From the NCBI GenBank assembly GCA_026396115.1, contig JAPLXL010000005.1, positions 66,967 through 130,966 on the forward strand: a DNA stretch of 64,000 nucleotides, written 5' to 3'. Source of the DNA: Candidatus Nealsonbacteria bacterium (GTDB lineage Bacteria > Patescibacteriota > Minisyncoccia > Minisyncoccales > RBG-13-42-11). Shown here piece after piece: positions 3,498 through 46,021 of this stretch. The position numbers and the translations under genes are program-made. How positions within the stretch are numbered: position 1 is the stretch's first letter; each line of letters opens with the position of its first letter. The notes beneath the pieces were generated by a model. The model was not told the origin of the DNA and made no database searches. It saw only the letters and a program-made list of their open reading frames with translations.

Positions 3498-4094
3498 ATG
3501 AAAAAGACAAAAATAATTTTAGCTACAACATCTCCTTATCGTAAAGAAACATTTGGATATTTAGGTATCCCTTTTGAGGTAGAAGGAAGCAATACAGATG
3601 AATCTCAGGCAGAAAGAAATGACCCCGAAGAGTTAGTGAAGAACCTTTCTAAATTAAAGGCTGAGGCGGTTGCTAAAAACCATTCCGATGCTATCGTAAT
3701 CGGAATGGATTCTGTTACTTATTTTAACGATAAAATTCTTGAGAAACCAAAATCAAGAGAAGAAGATTTCCAAAGATTAAAAGAGCTTTCTGGAAATAAC
3801 CATCAATTCTACACAGGAGTTTATATAGTGAATACAGCTACAAATAAAGCGATTTCAAGAGTGGTTAAAACAGAGGTCTTTATGAGGAATCTTTCAGAAA
3901 AAGAGATTAACAAATATCTTGATGAAGACCCTCATTTTAACACCTATGCTTTAGGTTATGACCCCGTAAGGCACATTAGCTCGTCATTTGTCCAAAGAAT
4001 AGAAGGAAGTTATTATAATCTTTTAGGAGGTATTCCTTTGGAAACAATAGTTGAAATGTTAGGAGAAATAGGATATAAAGAAGAACAATTTTAA
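3498..4094 (+). CDS. maf: Maf-like nucleoside triphosphate pyrophosphatase
   Basis: 198 aa. Motifs: ILATTSPYRKETFGYLGIPF, VIGMDSV, YTGVYIV, GSYYNLLGGIPLE. Confidence 0.8.
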   Translation: MKKTKIILATTSPYRKETFGYLGIPFEVEGSNTDESQAERNDPEELVKNLSKLKAEAVAKNHSDAIVIGMDSVTYFNDKILEKPKSREEDFQRLKELSGNNHQFYTGVYIVNTATNKAISRVVKTEVFMRNLSEKEINKYLDEDPHFNTYALGYDPVRHISSSFVQRIEGSYYNLLGGIPLETIVEMLGEIGYKEEQF

Positions 4095-4106
4095 ATTAAC
4101 TCAATT

Positions 4107-4553
4107 ATGAAAATAACTATTTGTGGAAGTATCGCATTCCAAGATGAAGTGCTTTCTGTAAAAGAAAAATTAGAAAAATTAGGGCATGAGGTAAAGGTGT
4201 GGCCCCTTAAATTAGAAGATGGAAAAGGGCAATTGATTTCGGCCAAAGAATACTACAAGATACGGAAGATAGCAGCCGATGATGAGAAATGGGTTTGGGA
4301 TAGGAAAGCCGAAGCCGTCCTTAAGCATTTCGATAAAGTTTCCTGGTCGGATGCTATTTTAGTTGCGAATTACGATAAAAATAATGTTAATGGTTATATT
4401 GGGGGCAACACTTTAATGGAGATAGGTCTCGCTTTTTTCTTAAAAAAGAAAATCTATCTTTTAAATGAGATTCCAGAACTACCATATAAAGAAGAAATTT
4501 TAGGAGTAAGGCCTATTGTTCTTGGAGGTGATTTAAGTAAAATTACCAACTAA
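4107..4553 (+). CDS. nucleoside 2-deoxyribosyltransferase-like protein
   Basis: 148 aa. The MKITICGSIAF N-terminus and the GYIGGNTLMEIGLAF segment resemble the NDT/Rcl flavodoxin-like fold. Confidence 0.4.
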   Translation: MKITICGSIAFQDEVLSVKEKLEKLGHEVKVWPLKLEDGKGQLISAKEYYKIRKIAADDEKWVWDRKAEAVLKHFDKVSWSDAILVANYDKNNVNGYIGGNTLMEIGLAFFLKKKIYLLNEIPELPYKEEILGVRPIVLGGDLSKITN

Positions 4554-4623
4554 ACAGATTCTGACGTCGTTCACCATACGGAGCTAACGAAATATCGCCA
4601 AGAAGGCGGTTTTTTGGTAGAAT
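4553..4623 (+). repeat. junction repeat B+A (GATTCTGAC...GGAGCTAACG + hairpin + TGGTAGAAT)
   Basis: aacaGATTCTGACgtcgttcaccataCGGAGCTAacgaaataTCGCCaagaaGGCGGttttttGGTAGAAT. Starts at the stop codon of the upstream gene. Confidence 0.6.
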
Positions 4624-4680
4624 GAATCAACAAGGTTGAATAATATATTAAAAGTTTATTTGAATAAAAAATGAAGTAAT

Positions 4681-4935
4681 ATGGAAAAAGAAAAAATCAA
4701 AAAAGAAGAATTTAAAGTTTCTGGTGAAGACGTCGTTAAAAAAGTAAAGGAATTGATAAAAGAAGGAAATATCAGAAGAATTATCATCAAAAATGAGGAA
4801 AATAAGACTTTAGTTGAATTTCCCCTTACGATAGGTTTGGTTGGCGCTGCCCTATTGCCAGTCTGGGCGGCGATTGGTGCTATCGCAGCTTTAGTAGCTA
4901 ATTGTACAATCGTGGTCGAAAAAAGAGAAGGTTAA
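4681..4935 (+). CDS. DUF4342-like small protein with C-terminal hydrophobic helix
   Basis: 84 aa. FKVSGEDVVKKVKELIKEGNIRRIIIKNEENKTLVEFPLT followed by GLVGAALLPVWAAIGAIAALV. Confidence 0.5.
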   Translation: MEKEKIKKEEFKVSGEDVVKKVKELIKEGNIRRIIIKNEENKTLVEFPLTIGLVGAALLPVWAAIGAIAALVANCTIVVEKREG

Positions 4936-6128: not shown

Positions 6129-6170
6129 CGGCGCCTTTTTGATTAGTTAAAAAATGATAAATTGGTAAAA

Positions 6171-6201
6171 AATAGCCAAGCAGGCGGTTTTATGGTAGAA
6201 T
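6171..6201 (+). promoter_or_regulatory. junction repeat type A
   Basis: aatAGCCaagcaGGCGGttttaTGGTAGAAT. TAGAAT ends 7 nt before ATG 6209. Confidence 0.5.
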
Positions 6202-6208
6202 GAACTAT

Positions 6209-7336
6209 ATGATAAAAGAATTTAAAAAAGGAATATCTCTTCCTATAATAATCGTTATTTTAGCTCTCGTATTAATAGGCGGGGTGCTTATTTATTATTT
6301 TTTAATCAAAAATCCTGAATCCCCATCCTCGGGAGAAGAAACACTTATCAAAGTCGCCAGCCCGCAATCCAATCAGGAAATACAGAGCCCTTTTATAGTA
6401 AAAGGCGAAGCCAGAGGATATTGGTTTTTTGAGGCTACTTTTCCCACAAAACTGCTTGATGAAAATGGAAATATTATTAAGCAGACTATCGCCCAAGCCC
6501 AGGGAGAATGGATGACAGAGGATTTTGTCCCGTTTGAAGCCTTATTAACTTTTTCGGTTCCCAAAAATCAGAAAGGAACTCTCATTTTGGAAAAAGATAA
6601 TCCCTCGGGACTCCCCGAAAACGACGACGAAGTTAAAATTCCCATTCGTTTAAGCGCGACAGAAATACAAACTAATTTTTCCGAAACAGGAAATCTTGTA
6701 AAAGATAATCCCGGATTAAATCCCGGCGTTTGGTATTTGGTTTATGAAAAACCTGGGACTCCTGCTTTGAATGCCGAAATTAAATTTAACGAAGACAGTC
6801 TTTGTCAAATTGTCGCAGTTTCTCAATCTTGCCAGCAAACAGTACTTGAAGGAGGGGATAGAGTTGAGGTTACGGGTTGGGAAATAAACGGCATCTTGAT
6901 TGTTAAAAATATGGTGATACAAAAGACTTCCGAACAACTAAGGACGGTAAAATTGTATTACTATAATCCTAATTTGGATAAAGACAGCACTGGAAATATT
7001 CTTTGCAGCAGAAACGGCTTGGTAGCGGTGGAACGTGAAATTCCAATAACAAATACCCCTATCCAGGAAACAATAAGACTTCTTATTTCAGGAAATCTTA
7101 CCAGCGCAGAAAAGGCACAGGGCATTACTACCGAATATCCTTTACAAGAACTTAATCTAACGGCTGCATCATTAAATAGCGGCGTTTTGACGCTTACATT
7201 TGACGATTCCTACAACAAAACCGGCGGTGGTTCATGCCGGGTTGGTATTCTCTGGTTTCAGATTGAGGCTACTGCTAAGCAATTTCCCGAGGTTTCATCA
7301 GTACGCTTTATGCCCGAGGAATTATTCCAGCCATAA
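6209..7336 (+). CDS. secreted Gmad2 Ig-like + GerMN domain protein
   Basis: The track ORF starts at 6200, inside the TAGAAT box, so I prefer ATG 6209. Signal anchor. IKVASPQSNQEIQSPFIVKGEARGYWFFEATF (Gmad2-like). C-terminal KLYYYNPNLD...ETIRLLISG (GerMN-like). Confidence 0.6.
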   Translation: MIKEFKKGISLPIIIVILALVLIGGVLIYYFLIKNPESPSSGEETLIKVASPQSNQEIQSPFIVKGEARGYWFFEATFPTKLLDENGNIIKQTIAQAQGEWMTEDFVPFEALLTFSVPKNQKGTLILEKDNPSGLPENDDEVKIPIRLSATEIQTNFSETGNLVKDNPGLNPGVWYLVYEKPGTPALNAEIKFNEDSLCQIVAVSQSCQQTVLEGGDRVEVTGWEINGILIVKNMVIQKTSEQLRTVKLYYYNPNLDKDSTGNILCSRNGLVAVEREIPITNTPIQETIRLLISGNLTSAEKAQGITTEYPLQELNLTAASLNSGVLTLTFDDSYNKTGGGSCRVGILWFQIEATAKQFPEVSSVRFMPEELFQP

Positions 7337-7384
7337 ATCTACTGATTTTTTAGCAGCATAAAAGTAAATGTGTAGTTTTGACAA

Positions 7385-7416
7385 AAATCGCCAAGAAGGC
7401 GGTTTTTTGATAGAAT
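7385..7416 (+). promoter_or_regulatory. junction repeat type A
   Basis: aaaaTCGCCaagaaGGCGGttttttGATAGAAT. Confidence 0.5.
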
Positions 7417-7446
7417 AATATAAGAATTAAAATTAAACAAAATCAT

Positions 7447-7916: not shown

Positions 7917-8393
7917 ATGAAAATTTATTTTGCGGGGTCAATTCGTGCTGGAAGAGTAGACCAAGAATCATATTTTAAAATAATTGAATATCTTAAAAAA
8001 TACGGACAGGTTTTGACCGAGCATGTTGGAGATAAGGATTTAACTGATTCAGGCGAGAAAAATATATCTGAAGGGGAAATTTATGAAAGAGATATGTCTT
8101 GGCTTAAAGAGACCGATGTTTTTATTGCTGAAATTTCAATCCCTTCTCTTGGCGTTGGTTATGAAATAGCAAAAGCTGAAGAATGGGGAAAAAGGATTCT
8201 ATGTCTTTGTAGGAAGCCAGAGGATGGAAAGAAAATATCTGCTATAATTAAAGGAAATAAGAACATAATCTTAAAAGAATACAATGATTTAGATGAGGCG
8301 TTTCAATATATTGATGATTTTTTAAACAAAACAGATTCTAACACCGTCCGTCCCTCGAAGCTAATAGCCCGAGCCTTTGGCTTGGGTTTTTGA
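7917..8393 (+). CDS. 2'-deoxynucleoside 5'-phosphate N-hydrolase (DNPH1/Rcl-like)
   Basis: MKIYFAGSIRAGRVDQESYFKIIEYLKKYGQVLTEHV and SIPSLGVGYEIAKAEEWGKRILCL closely follow the DNPH1 pattern (FCGSIRGGR...GKVLTEHV...PSLGVGYE). The last ~21 codons are encoded by a type B repeat. Confidence 0.75.
   Translation: MKIYFAGSIRAGRVDQESYFKIIEYLKKYGQVLTEHVGDKDLTDSGEKNISEGEIYERDMSWLKETDVFIAEISIPSLGVGYEIAKAEEWGKRILCLCRKPEDGKKISAIIKGNKNIILKEYNDLDEAFQYIDDFLNKTDSNTVRPSKLIARAFGLGF
8326..8392 (+). repeat. junction repeat type B, overlapping the 3' end of the DNPH1-like CDS
   Basis: aaaacaGATTCTAACaccgtccgtccCTCGAAGCTAatagcc... supplies the C-terminal tail KTDSNTVRPSKLIARAFGLGF and the stop. Confidence 0.55.
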
Positions 8394-8957: not shown

Positions 8958-8972
8958 ATTTAAGGTTTCGTT

Positions 8973-9015
8973 AAATAGGTTCTAACATCGTTCCATAAAC
9001 ACAGCTACGATTTTT
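8973..9015 (+). repeat. junction repeat type B
   Basis: aaataGGTTCTAACatcgttccataaacacAGCTAcgatttttt. Confidence 0.5.
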
Positions 9016-9380: not shown

Positions 9381-9585
9381 TGTGGTTAAAGCCCATATTG
9401 GTATGTATAGTGACATGGTTCATCTGACAGATAATTGGCATATTATAATGTCTTCTGATATTATGAAACGTTTTGAAGATACGATAAAAAGGGTTCGAAA
9501 AGAATTTCTGGACGAATTTAAGGATGAGGGATTTTACCACTATCTAAATAAAATGGAAAATACACTCAAATTTTCCCGAAGATAG
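9319..9585 (+). CDS. hypothetical protein
   Basis: ATG 9319 follows AAGGAGG; the track start 9268 has no RBS. 88 aa. Stop TAG 9583-9585 overlaps the tRNA-like fragment. Confidence 0.45.
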   Translation: MKEKIEESINEKKKEKTYTADVVKAHIGMYSDMVHLTDNWHIIMSSDIMKRFEDTIKRVRKEFLDEFKDEGFYHYLNKMENTLKFSRR

Positions 9586-9649
9586 TAATAGGGGACTACT
9601 TGTTCTCTAAATCCGAGAGACGCTGGTTCAAATCCGGCCGGAGGTGCCA
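9583..9649 (+). pseudogene. 5'-truncated tRNA-like fragment: D arm, anticodon arm (CUA in anticodon position), T arm, 3' acceptor + CCA
   Basis: TAGT-aatagggg-ACTA c TTGTT-cuCUAaa-TCCGA gagac GCTGG-ttcaaat-CCGGC CGGAGGT g CCA. Standard tRNA numbering fits from position 10 to 76. No complementary 5' acceptor strand exists upstream. The anticodon stem has only 3 canonical pairs. Confidence 0.5.
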
Positions 9650-9664
9650 ATTCTATATATAAAT

Positions 9665-9688
9665 AGCGGGCAATTGCTCGCTTTTTTA
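9665..9688 (+). terminator. terminator hairpin (repeated unit)
   Basis: AGCGGGCAATTGCTCGCT + TTTTTT. The same unit occurs at 12016-12039; a related TTGCTCGCTTTTTT occurs at 11465-11478. Confidence 0.55.
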
Positions 9689-9834
9689 TTTGCCAAAAAT
9701 CGATAATTAAAAAATTGATAAAACCCCAAAAAAGAGTTAAATTTAAAGAAGATCAAATGTTAAAAGAAAATCCAAAAAATAGAATAAAGGATTTACCGAA
9801 AATTGAACGACCGCGCGAAAAACTCATCGCATAG
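9688..9834 (+). pseudogene. duplicated radC upstream region + truncated radC 5' end (25 codons)
   Basis: ATG 9757: MLKENPKNRIKDLPKIERPREKLIA*, versus intact RadC MLRENQRKNRIKDLPKIERPRERLIS at 21782. The upstream 70 nt match 18868-18935. Confidence 0.7.
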
Positions 9835-11058: not shown

Positions 11059-11222
11059 ATTCTTTGCACGATTATTATTCCACACCAGACCTGCCCTCGT
11101 GTTGTAAAAATTGAGATAAGATTTAACATATCTCAAATAAATCGATAAAGTTGAGATATAATATTCTATATTTCAATATATGCCTAAGAATAACTTAAAC
11201 GAAAGGTTTCGCTTTCTTGCTC

Positions 11223-11251
11223 TTGACAAGCTCTCTTGATTACAGTAATAT
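11223..11251 (+). promoter_or_regulatory. sigma-70-type promoter in an ORF-free region
   Basis: TTGACA, 17-nt spacer, TAATAT. About 25 nt upstream of the tRNA-like element. Confidence 0.4.
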
Positions 11252-11275
11252 GATAACATTGCCCTTTTAAAAATT

Positions 11276-11414
11276 GACCCCTGTGTTGATGAACGTATCG
11301 GATATTAACCTATCACAGCACTGTTTTAATTTGACTGCGAGTTTAAAACAACAAAGATCGCGGTATACCCATATTATACTGCTCCGATAGTCGGTTTGAC
11401 TCCGACCAGGGGTC
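11276..11414 (+). ncRNA. tRNA-like structured RNA candidate (unclassified)
   Basis: An 8-bp terminal helix GACCCCTG/CAGGGGTC closes a ~139-nt segment. Its 3' side carries a T-arm-like GTCGG-tttgact-CCGAC directly abutting the helix. An internal GTATA-cccatat-TATAC hairpin is present. No ORF. Promoter upstream, and AGCGAGCAA...TTGCTCGCTTTTTT downstream. Confidence 0.3.
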
Positions 11415-11579
11415 TCGTCTTATAGATAGCGAGCAAATACAAATATAATCAAAATATAAAGATACCAATTGCTCGCTTTTTTCTTTGCCAAATATTGACA
11501 ATTCTTAGCTATTTGTTATTCTTAATTAGACGCAAGTATGTACTTGCTGAGTTATTTAAAATTTAAGGGGGTGAATATA

Positions 11580-11771
11580 ATGAGAGACATTAAAAAATGT
11601 GTGTTGTTATGTCCTAATACGTTTGAAGTTTTGCAATATGAATTGAAACCTTTACCTTGTAGTTATCCTGAAGAAGAAAAGTGTGGGAGTTATGTAAAAA
11701 TAATCCGAAGAAAAGAAAGAAAAACAGCTATAACTTTTTGTAAATATCAGGAAAAAAATCGGGAGGTATAA
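11580..11771 (+). CDS. small Cys-rich hypothetical protein
   Basis: ATG 11580 follows AAGGGGG. 63 aa with 6 Cys. Confidence 0.35.
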   Translation: MRDIKKCVLLCPNTFEVLQYELKPLPCSYPEEEKCGSYVKIIRRKERKTAITFCKYQEKNREV

Positions 11772-11858
11772 ATATTCCCCTCTTTTTTCTTAACAAGTTT
11801 TTTTGAAAATAGTAATATATAGCATTAATCGTCATTTATTGTTCTTTTTAAAAATTGG

Positions 11859-11995
11859 GCCCCCGTAGCTTAGTTGACTAGAGCACACGTCTTTCAAACG
11901 TCAGTAGGACTAGAAAACTATCCGTCGGTTTAAATCAAGGGGGACTACTCGTTTTCTAAATCCGAGAGACCACTGGTTCAAATCAGTGCGGGGGT
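11859..11995 (+). tRNA. aberrant ~137-nt tRNA-like gene (chimera of two tRNA-like modules)
   Basis: A canonical 5' part reads GCCCCCG ta GCTT-agttgacta-GAGC a cACGT-cuUUCaa-ACGTc plus a GGAcTAG-aaaa-CTATCC arm. A second module is homologous to 9591-9632, with CUA in the anticodon position. This is followed by T arm CACTG-gttcaaat-CAGTG and CGGGGGT, which pairs with the 5' GCCCCCG. Confidence 0.4.
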
Positions 11996-12015
11996 TCAAT
12001 AACTTTTATATAAAT

Positions 12016-12039
12016 AGCGGGCAATTGCTCGCTTTTTTC
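12016..12039 (+). terminator. terminator hairpin (repeated unit)
   Basis: AGCGGGCAATTGCTCGCT + TTTTTT, identical to 9665-9688. Confidence 0.55.
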
Positions 12040-12072
12040 TTTGCCAAAATTGGAATAGAGTAGGGGTTTTAG

Positions 12073-12108: not shown

Positions 12109-12160
12109 GCAACCTTCCTTATTTTTTTGCGTTGTGATAATAATAAATTGTGCAATTTTT

Positions 12161-14338: not shown

Positions 14339-14440
14339 GTATAGTGCTGGAAAATAAAAGATTTTTAAATTTTTATTTGAATTTAGGCAAAGATGGAGGC
14401 GTCTCACAATCTATGAATAAGAAGCCAATGTCGCATAATC

Positions 14441-14513
14441 CGTATTGGTTCGAATCCTACCCACCGAGCCAAACAAAAACCACCTTTTTATTGAGGCGGT
14501 TTTTTGGTAGAAT
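14441..14513 (+). repeat. junction repeat B+A (T-loop-like variant)
   Basis: cgtattGGTTCGAATCCtacccaCCGAGCCAaacaaaaACCACCtttttattgaGGCGGTtttttGGTAGAAT. TAGAAT ends 8 nt before ATG 14522. Confidence 0.55.
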
Positions 14514-16660: not shown

Positions 16661-16745
16661 TCTCTTCCAATCAATGGTTCTAAATGAGTCCTGTAGGGGG
16701 AGTTTGCTTCAAAGAATTGCCAATCAGGCGGTTTTTTGGTAGAAT
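16661..16745 (+). repeat. junction repeat B+A
   Basis: ...caatGGTTCTAAAtgagtcc...gaaTTGCCaatcaGGCGGttttttGGTAGAAT. Confidence 0.55.
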
Positions 16746-16787
16746 GATAATGTACGGATTAAAATAAAAGGTAATTATTTTATCAAC

Positions 16788-17705: not shown

Positions 17706-17782
17706 AACTAAGTTCTAATATTGTACCATCCTCGGAGCCAAACAAAAACCGCCTTTTTATTGAGGCGGTTTTTTGGTAGAAT
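17706..17782 (+). repeat. junction repeat B+A
   Basis: aactaAGTTCTAATattgtaccatCCTCGGAGCCAaacaaaaACCGCCtttttattgaGGCGGTtttttGGTAGAAT. Confidence 0.6.
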
Positions 17783-17793
17783 GAGGTAATAAT

Positions 17794-18192
17794 ATGGAAA
17801 AAAAGATTAACAGATTTGTATATTGGACACCAAGAATTTTGTCAATCATCTTTATACTATTTTTAGCTATGTTCTCTTTAGATGTTTTTGATATGAAATT
17901 AGGTTTCTGGGAAACAGCATTGGGGTTATTTATGCATAATATCCCGGTATTTGTTTTGTCGATTGTTCTGTTAATATCTTGGAAACGCGAGATTGTCGGA
18001 GGAATTGCTTTTAATTTAGCCGGAGTATTATATGTTGTAATAATATTGATGAATATGTTGAGGAATTCATTCGAATGGTATATGGTATCTTGGATCCCAA
18101 TAGTTTCTGGACCAGCATTTCTTATAGGTGTTTTATTTATTATCAATTGGCGCAAAAAACAAAATAATCAAAAGGATGCGTCTACAAAATAG
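17794..18192 (+). CDS. multi-pass membrane protein, hypothetical
   Basis: 132 aa, 4 hydrophobic helices. Confidence 0.5.
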   Translation: MEKKINRFVYWTPRILSIIFILFLAMFSLDVFDMKLGFWETALGLFMHNIPVFVLSIVLLISWKREIVGGIAFNLAGVLYVVIILMNMLRNSFEWYMVSWIPIVSGPAFLIGVLFIINWRKKQNNQKDASTK

Positions 18193-18256
18193 GTTCTAAC
18201 GTCTTCCGTTCCTCGGAGCTACGAAAATCGCCAATCAGGCGGTTTTTTGGTAGAAT
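18187..18256 (+). repeat. junction repeat B+A (best-preserved copy)
   Basis: aaataGGTTCTAACgtcttccgttCCTCGGAGCTAcgaaaaTCGCCaatcaGGCGGttttttGGTAGAAT. Confidence 0.6.
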
Positions 18257-18295
18257 AATAGATAGATGAGTTTATAAATAGTATCTAATTAATTT

Positions 18296-18867: not shown

Positions 18868-18979
18868 TTTGGCAAAAATCGCCAATTGACAGTTTGATAA
18901 AAACCTAAAAAAGAGTTAAATTGGAAGAAGATCAAATGTCAAAAGAAAATCAAAGAAAAAATAGAATAAAGGATTTACC
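18868..18979 (+). pseudogene. second duplicated radC upstream region + radC 5' stub (~14 codons)
   Basis: tttggcaaaaatcg...ttgataaaaacctaaaaaagagttaaattggaagaagatcaaATGtcaaaagaaaatcaaagaaaaaatagaataaaggatttacc matches 9688-9800 and the first codons of radC at 21782. Confidence 0.65.
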
Positions 18980-19004
18980 CCAAAAGTTTTCCACCTTTTC
19001 GCCC

Positions 19005-21781: not shown

Positions 21782-22477
21782 ATGTTAAGAGAAAATCAAA
21801 GAAAAAATAGAATAAAGGACTTACCTAAAATTGAACGGCCAAGAGAGAGATTGATTTCAAAAGGAGCGGAGAACTTAAAAGACGAAGAGCTTTTGGCTAT
21901 TCTTCTAAGAACTGGTAGAGAAGGCAAAAATGTAATTGAGTTAGCAAAGCAAATTTTGAGAAAATACTCCAAAAAGCGACTTTTTAAAATGAAGTATGAG
22001 GATTTAATAAAAATCAAAGGAATAAATTCCGCTAAAACCTGCACAATTTTAGCTGCTGCTGAATTAGTAAAAAGAGCGCTGAAAGTACAAGATGAAACCT
22101 TGCCAATTATTAAATCAGTTAAAGATGTTGTAGCCCAAGCTGTTTATTTAAGAGATAAAACTCGCGAACATTTAATGACTATTTATCTTAATGCCAGAAA
22201 CGAGATGGTCTGGAAAAAACAATCAACATTTATCGGCACATTAAACGCCAATTTAGTTCACCCGCGAGAAATTTTTGAAGAAGCCCTTAAACATAATGCC
22301 GCCTCTGTAATTTTGGTTCATAACCACCCGTCAGGGGATAGCGAGCCATCAGAAGACGACTTAGAAATCACTAAACGTATTATTGAAGCCGGCAAAATAA
22401 TGGGAATTGACGTTTTAGACCACATCATCATTACCAAAACCAAAGTTTTTAGTTTCAAGGAGAACAAATTGATTTGA
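21782..22477 (+). CDS. radC: RadC-like JAB domain protein
   Basis: 231 aa. LSDEELLAILLRTG-like ELLAILLRTGREGKNV, and JAMM motif VHNHPSGDSEPSEDD. Confidence 0.9.
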   Translation: MLRENQRKNRIKDLPKIERPRERLISKGAENLKDEELLAILLRTGREGKNVIELAKQILRKYSKKRLFKMKYEDLIKIKGINSAKTCTILAAAELVKRALKVQDETLPIIKSVKDVVAQAVYLRDKTREHLMTIYLNARNEMVWKKQSTFIGTLNANLVHPREIFEEALKHNAASVILVHNHPSGDSEPSEDDLEITKRIIEAGKIMGIDVLDHIIITKTKVFSFKENKLI

Positions 22478-36485: not shown

Positions 36486-36540
36486 TCAAAATTTAGGTCG
36501 AAGTTGAAAAGTCGCCAAGAAGGCAGTTTTTTGGTAGAAT
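36484..36540 (+). repeat. composite junction repeat C+A
   Basis: AATCAAAATTTAGGTCGAAGTTGAAAAGTCGCCaagaaGGCAGttttttGGTAGAAT. TAGAAT ends 6 nt before ATG 36547. Confidence 0.6.
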
Positions 36541-36546
36541 AAAAAC

Positions 36547-37386
36547 ATGAAAGAAAAAATTAAGCTAGTTTTTAAGACTATCTTTTTAATCGCCATAGTT
36601 TCGACGATAGCGATGTATTGGTATGACCAGTATAATTATTATTTTGGCGAATATTACGAATATACACTTGATTGTCCCTTAGGGAGCAATGTCGCCCTCA
36701 TAAAAATACAGGGAGAAATAGTTACTTACGGGACAGAATTAGTTGATTCAGAAAGCTCAGAGACAGTATCTGAAGATATAACATCGTCGGAAACAGTAGT
36801 TGAATATATAAATCAGATAGAAGGAGACGACTACATGGAGGCAATAATTGTAGAAATAGATTCGTATGGAGGCTCACCAGTAGCCTCTGAGGAGATAATG
36901 AATGCTTTAAAAAGAACTACAAAGCCAACTGTTGCGGTAATAAGAGAAGGTGGGGTTTCCGGGGCTTATCTTATAGCTTCGGGGGCTGATATAATATTTG
37001 CCAGTGAAATGTCAGACATAGGGGGAATCGGAATCACAATGTCTTATCTAGATTACTCTCAACAAAACAAACAAGAGGGCATAATCTATCAACAATTATC
37101 CTTGGGTAAGTTTAAGGATACGGGAGATCCGGATAAAAATTTAACGACTGAAGAAAAAGAGCTTCTTATGAGAGATATAAAGATACTACACGAAGCTTTT
37201 GTAAGAAGAGTGGCTGAAAACAGGGGATTAGATATTGAAAAAGTTGAAAAGTTAGCAGATGGCTCCACGATGTTGGGAATAGCCGCCAAGGAAAACGGGC
37301 TTATTGATGAAATAGGGGATATAAACGACGCAAAAAATTGGCTAAGAGAACAGTTTACGATAGAGCCGGAAATCTGTGTTTATTAA
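36547..37386 (+). CDS. sppA: signal peptide peptidase SppA (36K type, S49)
   Basis: N-terminal TM. IVEIDSYGGSPVASEEI, GVSGAYLIASGADIIFA, LSLGKFKDTGDP. Confidence 0.8.
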   Translation: MKEKIKLVFKTIFLIAIVSTIAMYWYDQYNYYFGEYYEYTLDCPLGSNVALIKIQGEIVTYGTELVDSESSETVSEDITSSETVVEYINQIEGDDYMEAIIVEIDSYGGSPVASEEIMNALKRTTKPTVAVIREGGVSGAYLIASGADIIFASEMSDIGGIGITMSYLDYSQQNKQEGIIYQQLSLGKFKDTGDPDKNLTTEEKELLMRDIKILHEAFVRRVAENRGLDIEKVEKLADGSTMLGIAAKENGLIDEIGDINDAKNWLREQFTIEPEICVY

Positions 37387-45095: not shown

Positions 45096-45184
45096 TACAA
45101 TTTTGGTCCCGGCGAGATTTCTAGCTAAAAGTTTCCAGCTAAAAGTCTTGTCGGGCTTTTTATTTTATGAGCGGGATATCAGAT

Positions 45185-45212
45185 GGGCAATCGGACGGTT
45201 TTTTGATAGAAT
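45185..45212 (+). promoter_or_regulatory. junction repeat type A (degenerate)
   Basis: gggcaaTCGGacGGttttttGATAGAAT. TAGAAT ends 8 nt before ATG 45221. Confidence 0.4.
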
Positions 45213-45220
45213 AAATAATT

Positions 45221-46021
45221 ATGACAAAAAATAAAAATATAACTTGGTCGTATAATAACTATGCAGAAAAATGGGCGAAGAGAATGCGCGAAGGAGGAGA
45301 TAGCGCTCATAGATATTTAGAGAAACCCGCTATGTACGGCAAACTCCCCAATTTAAAAAATAAATCAGTCCTTTGCATAGGATGCGGCACAGGGGAAGAA
45401 TGTAATTATATTAAATCTTTAGGAGTTAAAAAAATAGCAGGGATTGATATTTCAAAGAGATTAATTGGTTATGCCAAAAAGAATTATCCTGATATAGAAT
45501 TTCACACTATGGACATGGAAAAGCTTAATTTTCCAAAATCAAGTTTTGATTTTGTTTATTCCAGCTTAGGGCTCCATTATCTTAAGAATTGGACAAAGGT
45601 GTTAAGAAATGTATCTAAAGTATTGAAGAAAAATGGAACCTTTTTATTTTCTACTCATCATCCAATGAGGTGGGGAGCAGAAAAAAAGAGAGCCGGGATA
45701 ACAAAAAAGAGATCCAAAGATAAAAGATGGGTTTTAATGGGGTATGTTAAATATAATGATGAGAAAAAATATAAAGTTTACGGAGATTATCTTAATGCAA
45801 GAAAAGTTAAAGACATATGGTTTGATGAATTTAAAATTAGTTATTATCATAAACCATTATCGTTAATCATAAAGGAAATTCTTAACTCTGGCTTTAAAAT
45901 TGTTGATTTTATTGAACCAAAGCCTATTAATTCTGCAAAAAATAAGGATAGAAGATTTTGGGAGATTCATCGGAAAATTCCCTTGTTTATAATTTTTGAA
46001 TTGAAAAAAGATAAAAAATAA
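45221..46021 (+). CDS. class I SAM-dependent methyltransferase
   Basis: VLCIGCGTGEE (motif I), FDFVYSSLGLHY, LKKNGTFLFS. Confidence 0.8.
   Translation: MTKNKNITWSYNNYAEKWAKRMREGGDSAHRYLEKPAMYGKLPNLKNKSVLCIGCGTGEECNYIKSLGVKKIAGIDISKRLIGYAKKNYPDIEFHTMDMEKLNFPKSSFDFVYSSLGLHYLKNWTKVLRNVSKVLKKNGTFLFSTHHPMRWGAEKKRAGITKKRSKDKRWVLMGYVKYNDEKKYKVYGDYLNARKVKDIWFDEFKISYYHKPLSLIIKEILNSGFKIVDFIEPKPINSAKNKDRRFWEIHRKIPLFIIFELKKDKK

Follow-up and report, generated by a model that had tools for sequence, protein, structure and literature searches.

A putative tRNA-like non-coding RNA with an intervening multi-hairpin domain, and its small lineage-specific family, in Candidatus Nealsonbacteria

The stretch of DNA investigated here (the window) is a 64,000-nucleotide (nt) section of contig JAPLXL010000005.1 from a Candidatus Nealsonbacteria bacterium, a member of the Patescibacteriota. 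The window is ordinary chromosome of low GC content (~34%) and encodes a glutamine synthetase, a Mur ligase, a class II aminoacyl-tRNA synthetase, an ECF sigma factor, a type III restriction system and a serpin. Three RNA cassettes are present. The subject of this study is a transfer RNA (tRNA)-like gene at 11859–11996, referred to as RNA2. The other two are RNA3, a 139-nt tRNA-shaped RNA, and copy 1, a short copy of the RNA2 type that begins at 9591. Their parts are listed in Table 1, in window coordinates. The three cassettes have in common a promoter frame and a terminator built on AGCGRGC…TTGCTCGCTTTTTT, and the two long RNAs share the leader end TTTTAAAAATTG, which in RNA3 stands directly before ACCCCTG.

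The -35 box of RNA2 reads TTAACA in the window, as against TTGACA in the related loci L004, L006 and L007. The frame CTTGACA-N14-(T/C)AGTAATA is common to the regions upstream of RNA3 and of every related RNA gene. The leader may be removed by ribonuclease P (RNase P). A single acceptor stem of seven base pairs (bp), CGGGGGT with GCCCCCG, closes the whole RNA, as had been noticed in a first-pass annotation made from the sequence, and the tRNA-like 5' part, the hairpin and the closing strand described there are all present. The annotation had also stated that no T arm follows the hairpin. This holds for a full T arm, but a half T arm, GTCGGTTTAAATC, does follow it. The D loop has G-A at the usual place of G18-G19 in tRNA. 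The insertion is common to copy 1 from position 11940 onward. CCA is not encoded in RNA2, although it is in copy 1 and in the relatives L016, L020 and L021 described below. The same contiguous gene is found in two independent assemblies, L001 (Logan) and L004 (JGI), therefore RNA2 is not an assembly chimera. Among the three independent samples (window, L001 and L004) it differs by one base only.

The Rfam tRNA model (RF00005) matches 11859–11996 across the full model length at 31 bits, the gathering score being 29, and is the sole Rfam family to reach its gathering score across the 64 kb. The alignment places the acceptor stem, D arm, first hairpin and T arm, and has a 65-nt variable-region insertion, a C·C pair in the anticodon stem and an extra base in the T arm. 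With its default settings, ARAGORN reports neither a tRNA nor a transfer-messenger RNA (tmRNA) anywhere in the window. The check by tRNA predictors that had been proposed for this gene is divided between a full-length Rfam match just above threshold and nothing from ARAGORN by default. The intron detection of ARAGORN, likewise proposed, gives anticodon-loop introns only at lowered thresholds, and these solutions are mutually inconsistent. A search of the region against Rfam 15 at E-values up to 10 gave no match to a ribozyme, an intron, tmRNA or Y RNA.

Table 1. Features of the RNA cassettes and the gene between them, in window coordinates.
Feature	Position	Strand	Detail
Copy 1, 5'-truncated paralogue	9591..9649	+	Terminator 9665–9688
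RNA3 promoter	about 11222–11251	+	CTTGACA-N14-(T/C)AGTAATA frame
RNA3, sister-family member	11276..11414	+	8-bp acceptor stem GACCCCUG/CAGGGGUC; T arm GUCGG/UUUGACU/CCGAC
RNA3 long-loop terminator	11428–11482	+	
63-amino-acid protein with four invariant cysteines (C7, C27, C35, C54), between RNA3 and RNA2	11580..11771	+	Travels with RNA cassettes in other strains
Promoter-like site of RNA2	11790..11818	+	TTAACA, 17 nt, TAATAT
Putative 5' leader of RNA2, ending in TTTTTAAAAATTGG (start approximate)	11826..11858	+	Conserved with RNA3, L006–L009, L016 and L020
Acceptor 5' strand GCCCCCG, partner of 11989–11995	11859..11865	+	Helix conserved in the family
D arm GCTT/AGTTGACTA/GAGC, with U8 and A9 just 5'	11868..11884	+	Rfam alignment and family pairing
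Anticodon-like arm CACGT/CTTTCAA/ACGTC	11886..11902	+	4 bp ACGU/ACGU plus C·C mismatch; loop CUUUCAA; UUC at positions 34–36
Variable-region insertion, first part	11903..11952	+	Hairpin i1, half T arm, purine tract AAGGGGGA
Hairpin i1 GGAcTAG-AAAA-CTATCC	11907–11923	+	L016 has a hairpin at the same position: GGAUUAUAC-AAAAC-UUAUAUCC
Half T arm GTCGGTTTAAATC inside the RNA2 insertion	11924–11936	+	Matches the sister-family T arm GTCGGTTTGACTC at 11390–11402
Hairpin c, abutting the T arm: UUUCU/AAAUCCG/AGAGA	11953..11969	+	Pairing and covariation
T arm CACTG/GTTCAAAT/CAGTG	11971..11988	+	5 bp; 8-nt loop, standard plus one base
Acceptor 3' strand CGGGGGT and discriminator T	11989..11996	+	CGGGGGT at 11989–11995
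Intrinsic terminator AGCGGGCAATTGCTCGCT, then T run	12016..12039	+	Identical to the terminator at 9665–9688

Relatives of RNA2 were found through homologues of the protein encoded upstream of copy 1 (the P0124 family), the contigs of which were fetched. The P0124-family protein of the window matches, with full identity, a GenBank protein from a Candidatus Nealsonbacteria MAG on a 225-kb contig. Full-length genes of the RNA2 type are present at the copy 1 site in three of these loci (L016 3401–3550, L020 1212–1364 and L021 570–722), downstream of P0124-family proteins that are 63–65% identical to that of the window. Each gene has the promoter frame, a leader, a 7-bp acceptor stem, U8-A9, a D arm and a 4-bp arm with a 7-nt anticodon-like loop. 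An insertion of 58–80 nt follows, then a T arm of 5 bp with a 7-nt loop, a discriminator, an encoded CCA and a terminator. The L016 gene scores 41.4 bits against the Rfam tRNA model, with the insertion placed as in RNA2. The insertions of RNA2, L016 and L020 hold several hairpins.

The family sequences available for assessing conservation of pairing comprise four distinct full-length and four truncated ones, all from one narrow lineage. Columns were kept in register by dropping one loop base from the RNA2 T loop and one from the L020 hairpin c loop; one linker base was likewise dropped from L005 and L019 for the pairing counts. In five family sequences all pairs of the acceptor helix form (100%), one of them by compensatory change (C-G to U-A); the D stem is likewise 100% paired on the full-length alignment, also with one compensatory pair (GUUU/GAAC in L016). 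The anticodon-like stem is invariant across the family. When six distinct sequences are compared over their 3' parts, four of the five T stem pairs show compensatory changes. Hairpin c is fully (100%) paired in all six, and two of its pairs are compensatory; the stem is UYUCU/AGAGA in most of them and UCCUU/GAGGA in L020. For the T stem and hairpin c, the observed values were not equalled in any of 500 shuffles, and the slid registers all scored far below them. Helix covariation overall is above all or nearly all shuffles and above every slid register. The data set is small but consistent, and suggests a small, previously undescribed, lineage-specific family of tRNA-like RNAs in Candidatus Nealsonbacteria-like Patescibacteria. 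A covariance model built from the family (R1) gave no additional members when run on the window and on all the fetched loci.

Part of RNA2 had been reported to be homologous to a block at 9591. This block, with the 31-nt core GGGGACTACTYGTTYTCTAAATCCGAGAGAC, does occur exactly twice in the 64 kb, at 9591 and 11940, where the chance expectation is none, and the similarity extends through the T arm and the identical terminator (84% over 115 nt). Copy 1 retains the end of the insertion, hairpin c, a T arm (GCTGG/TTCAAAT/CCGGC), the acceptor 3' strand CGGAGGT, the discriminator G and CCA, which bears out the earlier description of a short copy with its own T stem, a different acceptor 3' strand and an encoded CCA. 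The ACTA at its start had been taken for the 3' strand of a D stem. It abuts a promoter -10 box, and is the junction of promoter and transcript rather than part of a D arm. In L003, L005 and L019 the promoter of the short copy is intact, with the -10 box fused directly to the transcript block (TAGTAATA joined to GGGGACTAC). Copy 1 of the window has lost the -35 box, together with the terminator of the upstream gene, through a deletion of ~90 nt.

Because the relatives hold a full-length gene at the copy 1 locus, copy 1 appears to be a 5'-deleted descendant that arose by deletion in place, with RNA2 as the full-length paralogue. The shared 45-nt block would exist because 9591–9649 is such a truncated paralogue of the RNA2 family. 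Between L003 and L005 this block is 95% identical and the adjacent coding sequence 66%, which indicates either selection or recent spread. A separate 5' half able to pair with copy 1 (AGTAGTCCCC, RCCTCCG), as in a split or permuted tRNA, was sought and gave chance-level matches only. In L019, an AbiEii-family gene and its likely partner (3605–4919) are located ~0.5 kb downstream of the truncated copy, which may be coincidence. AbiEii-family members have been reported to modify tRNA 3' ends.

RNA3 belongs to a sister family, in which a long arm closed by AUCGGA/UCCGAU replaces the anticodon arm. The slot of RNA2 is occupied in L006, L007 and L008/L009 by different tRNA-shaped RNAs of 151–289 nt, and L009 has a shorter member of 118 nt at the RNA3 position. 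The sister-family RNAs have an acceptor stem of 8–9 bp, U8, an optional D arm, the AUCGGA/UCCGAU-closed arm with variable hairpins, and a T arm; pairing in their acceptor and T helices amounts to 94%, and four of the pairs are compensatory. Comparison of the RNA2 slot in the window with that of L006 and L007 shows flanks that are 89–99% identical, whereas the RNA bodies, of 137–289 nt, are 44–58% identical. In strains with a 95% identical sigma factor the cassette is absent altogether. Near-identical flanks, divergent bodies and cassette-free strains are the signature of homologous exchange of RNA cassettes. The half T arm in the RNA2 insertion, GTCGGTTTAAATC, may be the footprint of such an exchange with the sister family. 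The sister-family terminators (11428–11482 in the window and 917–969 in L006) consist of the hairpin found at 12016 with ~30 nt inserted in the loop.

Exact-pattern scans of the GTDB representative genomes with the shared block and with the sister-family core gave no match. In IMG/VR there was likewise none, save one chance match in an unrelated GC-rich contig. No match to 11200–12060 was found by blastn in phage and plasmid collections.

The best reading of these comparisons is that RNA2 is a non-decoding tRNA mimic. It is considered probable, though not securely so, that RNA2 is a non-coding RNA gene derived from a tRNA, with a promoter and a terminator of its own, and, as part of the same judgement, that the family is built on a canonical tRNA body in which the variable loop is replaced by a 50–80-nt domain of about three hairpins, the last being the conserved hairpin c. 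The tRNA body would route the transcript into tRNA maturation, with RNase P cutting at the acceptor stem, trimming of the 3' end and CCA either encoded or added, and would also provide a stable L-shaped scaffold. The working part could be the enlarged variable domain or the tRNA mimicry itself, and either could bind or titrate a tRNA-recognising protein. RNA2 may have reached its present slot by homologous exchange of an RNA cassette between the conserved promoter/leader and terminator flanks. Because the genomes of Patescibacteria are tiny and leave little room to spare, a tRNA look-alike that is conserved and transcribed separately suggests a genuine function. The swapping of inner domains between strains in the sister family strengthens this case. 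Possible jobs include tRNA mimicry, regulation and conflict with tRNA-targeting enzymes.

Several points weigh against this interpretation. The mechanism is drawn by analogy with tRNA-like RNAs such as YrlA. The covariation counts are small, because the sequences are few and all come from one narrow lineage. The retention of U33, A37 and A38 in the anticodon-like loop, with only positions 32 and 34–36 varying, is also the pattern of a real anticodon loop. RNA2 itself is less well kept than L016, in its 8-nt T loop, the missing CCA and the TTAACA -35 box. In addition, an alternative fold that pairs GUCUUUC at 11889–11895 with GAGAGAC at 11964–11970 is 9 kcal/mol more stable than the cloverleaf and destroys the anticodon-like arm, whereas in L016 and L020 the minimum-energy fold and the cloverleaf differ by 1–3 kcal/mol only. 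This long-range stem is kept only in part elsewhere (6 bp in L016, ~4 bp in L020) and was not adopted as the fold of the family.

These untidy features mean that a recent, decaying recombinant stays the main rival for the window copy. RNA2 would then be a dead fusion of family pieces that survives only through being recent, and the family may function elsewhere. Besides the long T loop, the absence of the CCA seen in its relatives, the weakened -35 box and the distance of its minimum-energy fold from the cloverleaf, this would account for the inserted base and two non-standard pairs needed by Rfam and for the stray half T arm within the insertion. The genome's other family gene, copy 1, is clearly truncated and no longer has a -35 box. 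The acceptor stem of RNA2 is perfect, however, as are the 5 bp of its T stem, the 3' strand of which differs from that of copy 1 at three positions and still pairs; this suggests that pairing has been maintained. The gene is present in three independent samples with a single one-base difference within the RNA, and its promoter, leader and terminator are intact. Decay is judged unlikely, but is to be taken seriously. Much less can be said for the proposal in the first-pass annotation that the two copies are scars of integration into tRNA genes, here in the form of attachment-site scars left by a mobile element. The 2.3 kb concerned does lie between direct repeats of ~115 nt (9591 and 11940), the region varies between strains (as in L002, below), and partial tRNA genes commonly arise through the integration of elements (PMC9897764). 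Against this, the repeats have no integrase or recombinase between them or next to them; the intervening genes are a radC fragment, peptidase S51, TspO and the 63-amino-acid protein. The partial copy is on the wrong side, being 2.3 kb upstream of the complete gene on the same strand, 5' of it, where integration at a tRNA 3' end leaves the partial copy 3'. The repeat also takes in the terminator. The full-length gene at the partial locus in relatives and the start of the copy exactly at the -10 box point to internal deletion, and integration is very improbable.

A decoding role for RNA2, either as a working tRNA(Glu, UUC) or as some other decoder whose insertion is tolerated as a giant class-II-like arm or removed after transcription, is improbable. 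Once the insertion is taken out in silico, each of the cores is recognised as a tRNA by ARAGORN at default settings: Glu-UUC in the window, 'Stop'-UUA in L016 and Ala-AGC in L020/L021. These calls favour a decoder, as do the Rfam score above threshold, the conservation of U33, A37 and A38, and the CCA encoded in relatives. Engineered tRNAs, in the constructs that PMC7590224 describes, tolerate hairpins grafted in the long variable arm, which also counts in its favour. The triplets called are, however, three in four genes and differ among genes at the same locus (UUA in L016, AGC in L020/L021), and a conserved, code-compatible anticodon is not found among the orthologues. This drift of the anticodon-position triplet argues that the RNA2 family is not a decoder. 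AGC with A34 is not a normal bacterial decoder. Both the window and L016 use TAA and TAG as ordinary stops, and UUA would read TAA, which ends 5 of the 10 genes on the L016 contig. Since these stop codons are normally used, an efficient ochre or amber reader would be harmful there. The discriminator bases of the family (U, A, U and G) differ, which argues against one shared synthetase identity. To our knowledge, no bacterial mechanism removes a variable-loop insertion, and the lack of a ribozyme or intron match in Rfam also speaks against removal. RNA2 (65 nt), L016 and L020 (both 75–80 nt) fit neither the class I variable region of 4–5 nt nor the single class II stem-loop of >10 nt (PMC7609411). 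The family members are thus not ordinary decoders, with a small probability of decoding kept by the loop pattern. It is equally doubtful that they are chargeable tRNAs of a new structural class, in which a standard 7/5 body with a giant multi-hairpin variable domain is charged by a synthetase that ignores the anticodon, as seryl-tRNA synthetase (SerRS) recognises long variable arms. Such tRNAs could serve in occasional recoding (with the UUA of L016 as ochre reader) or in non-ribosomal aminoacyl donation, the swapping of cassettes tuning the payload. An amber reading, with the shared block as a second module that has CUA in the anticodon position and acts as a suppressor or tRNAPyl-like unit, is already contradicted by the comparative data and its probability appears negligible. 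In tRNA numbering the distance between CUA and the T arm is right, with U33 and A37 in place, and CTCTAAATCC resembles the tRNAPyl anticodon loop. ARAGORN gives 'tRNA-Pyl' at 9572–9649, but only with the score threshold lowered to 70% of default. The 5+7+5 arm proposed in the first-pass annotation is 44% paired with no covariation in five distinct sequences, no better than shuffled or slid controls, and has none of its five pairs in L016. The 'CUA' at 11956–11958 consists of two stem bases and the first loop base of hairpin c and is UUA in L020. The module lacks both a D arm and a 5' acceptor strand of its own, and the apparent D stem is the one that abuts the -10 box. The usage of TAG, which had been proposed as a check, is that of an ordinary stop: the 53 long open reading frames (ORFs) of the window end in TAA (37), TGA (10) and TAG (6), and each of the six has a further stop within 4–20 codons.

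The most similar objects described so far are allo-tRNAs and irregular tRNA-like sequences of soil and sediment bacteria (Mukai et al. 2017, reviewed in PMC7609411). As far as that review describes them, some of the irregular sequences have five-stem junctions and some are unusable for translation in E. coli (PMC7609411). The RNA2 family resembles allo-tRNAs, in the same account, in being tRNA-shaped genes with an enlarged variable arm and diverse anticodons that include an ochre-reading one; both the long arm and the diversity of anticodons by which allo-tRNAs are characterised are found in it. It differs in three ways from the allo-tRNAs presented there (PMC7609411). Their acceptor and T stems are 8/4 or 9/3 (12 bp), whereas every full-length member of the RNA2 family has 7/5. 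Allo-tRNAs have one stem-loop as variable arm, as against 50–80 nt with about three hairpins, and their hosts are Clostridia, Proteobacteria and Acidobacteria rather than Patescibacteria.

YrlA and tmRNA are comparable as stable non-coding RNAs that imitate the acceptor/T/D part of tRNA while the remainder does a non-decoding job. YrlA carries tRNA-type modifications, and the YrlA of M. smegmatis can be cleaved by RNase P and can receive CCA (PMC4201824). It is encoded beside Ro60 (Rsr), whereas no Ro60/TROVE match was found among the 20 window proteins scanned. A tmRNA needs G3·U70 and a tag reading frame and has pseudoknots, whereas the 3-70 pair of the RNA2 family is C-G or U·G. Neither ARAGORN by default nor Rfam finds a full tmRNA, the T arm alone giving a 12-bit local Rfam match. 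The RNA2 family also differs from both YrlA and tmRNA in keeping a complete anticodon-like arm.

Partial tRNA genes made by integration (PMC9897764) are similar in that a complete and a partial copy with a 3' block of ~45 nt in common lie a few kb apart, and gene finders can mistake such fragments for tRNAs (PMC9897764). Here there is no integrase, the geometry is wrong, and the partial copy has its own promoter and an origin by deletion. In engineered aptamer-tagged tRNAs and scaffolds, at least in the examples given in PMC7590224 and PMC3753655, foreign hairpins are placed in a tRNA body that gives folding, processing and stability; these are synthetic constructs, whereas the RNA2 genes are a natural, evolving family. 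On present sequence evidence RNA2 would be best filed as a tRNA-like non-coding RNA with an intervening domain, without a second anticodon, amber reading or integration scar. Of the three explanations offered in the first-pass annotation, an intervening sequence in a tRNA comes closest, and the scar and suppressor readings are unsupported. Such genes are missed by gene finders (ARAGORN) or called tRNAs (Rfam). Naive calls of tRNA-Glu, a 'stop-reading' tRNA and tRNA-Ala could seed false claims of suppressor tRNAs or altered codes in uncultured bacteria.

The surroundings of the cassettes differ between strains. In the sister strain L002 a complete gene for a 375-amino-acid Fic protein (710–1837) is present between TspO and NUDIX. 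At this site the window has ~7 kb of different genes, from 11188, and the Fic remnant is the first eight bases, ATGCCTAA, at 11181–11188. The gene content of the neighbourhood therefore varies between strains. The only homologues of the 63-amino-acid protein are near-identical ones and two distant ones in which four cysteines are kept, and it has no Pfam or PHROG family match. One of the distant homologues (L022 111–353, 50% identity) is in a tight run of very small same-strand ORFs with a phage- or plasmid-like look. The P0124-family protein upstream of copy 1 has no family match; its model is a three-helix bundle with a mean predicted local distance difference test (pLDDT) score of 74 and no significant PDB match.

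An ECF-type promoter-like motif, GCAACC-N16-CGTT, is found at 12120–12150, upstream of the sigma factor gene (start 12161), and is conserved in L006–L008, L010 and L011. In strains without RNA cassettes, a conserved intergenic element is located upstream of the ECF sigma operon. This element (14380–14475 in the window; L010 1570–1680; L011 290–400) contains GTCGCATAAYC, which resembles a CAU anticodon loop. The L010 and L011 versions carry GGACCTAAATCCGG as well, which resembles CTAAATCCG of the block shared by RNA2 and copy 1.

A dispersed repeat with the consensus AAAYAGRTTCTAACRYCKTYC…CCTCGGAGCTA is found just before terminators at 4548–4587, 8325–8364, 8969–9008, 18183–18222, 14440–14475 and 17715–17745. 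Two of its copies end in …GGTTCGAATCCTACCCACCGAGCCA and …CCTCGGAGCCA and look like decayed tRNA 3' ends, with T loop, acceptor 3' strand and CCA. Control regions between the genes of this genome follow a highly stereotyped pattern, with eight near-identical modules of a terminator plus a promoter (ATCGCCAAGAAGGCGGTTTTTTGGTAGAAT) at 2718–2744, 4590–4647, 6168–6225, 7383–7440, 16712–16769, 18223–18280, 36507–36564 and 45183–45236. Three radC 5' ends, at 9758–9832, 18937–18985 and 21782–22477, have upstream regions that are ~85% identical. The first of these stops after 24 codons, and only the third is full, at 231 amino acids.

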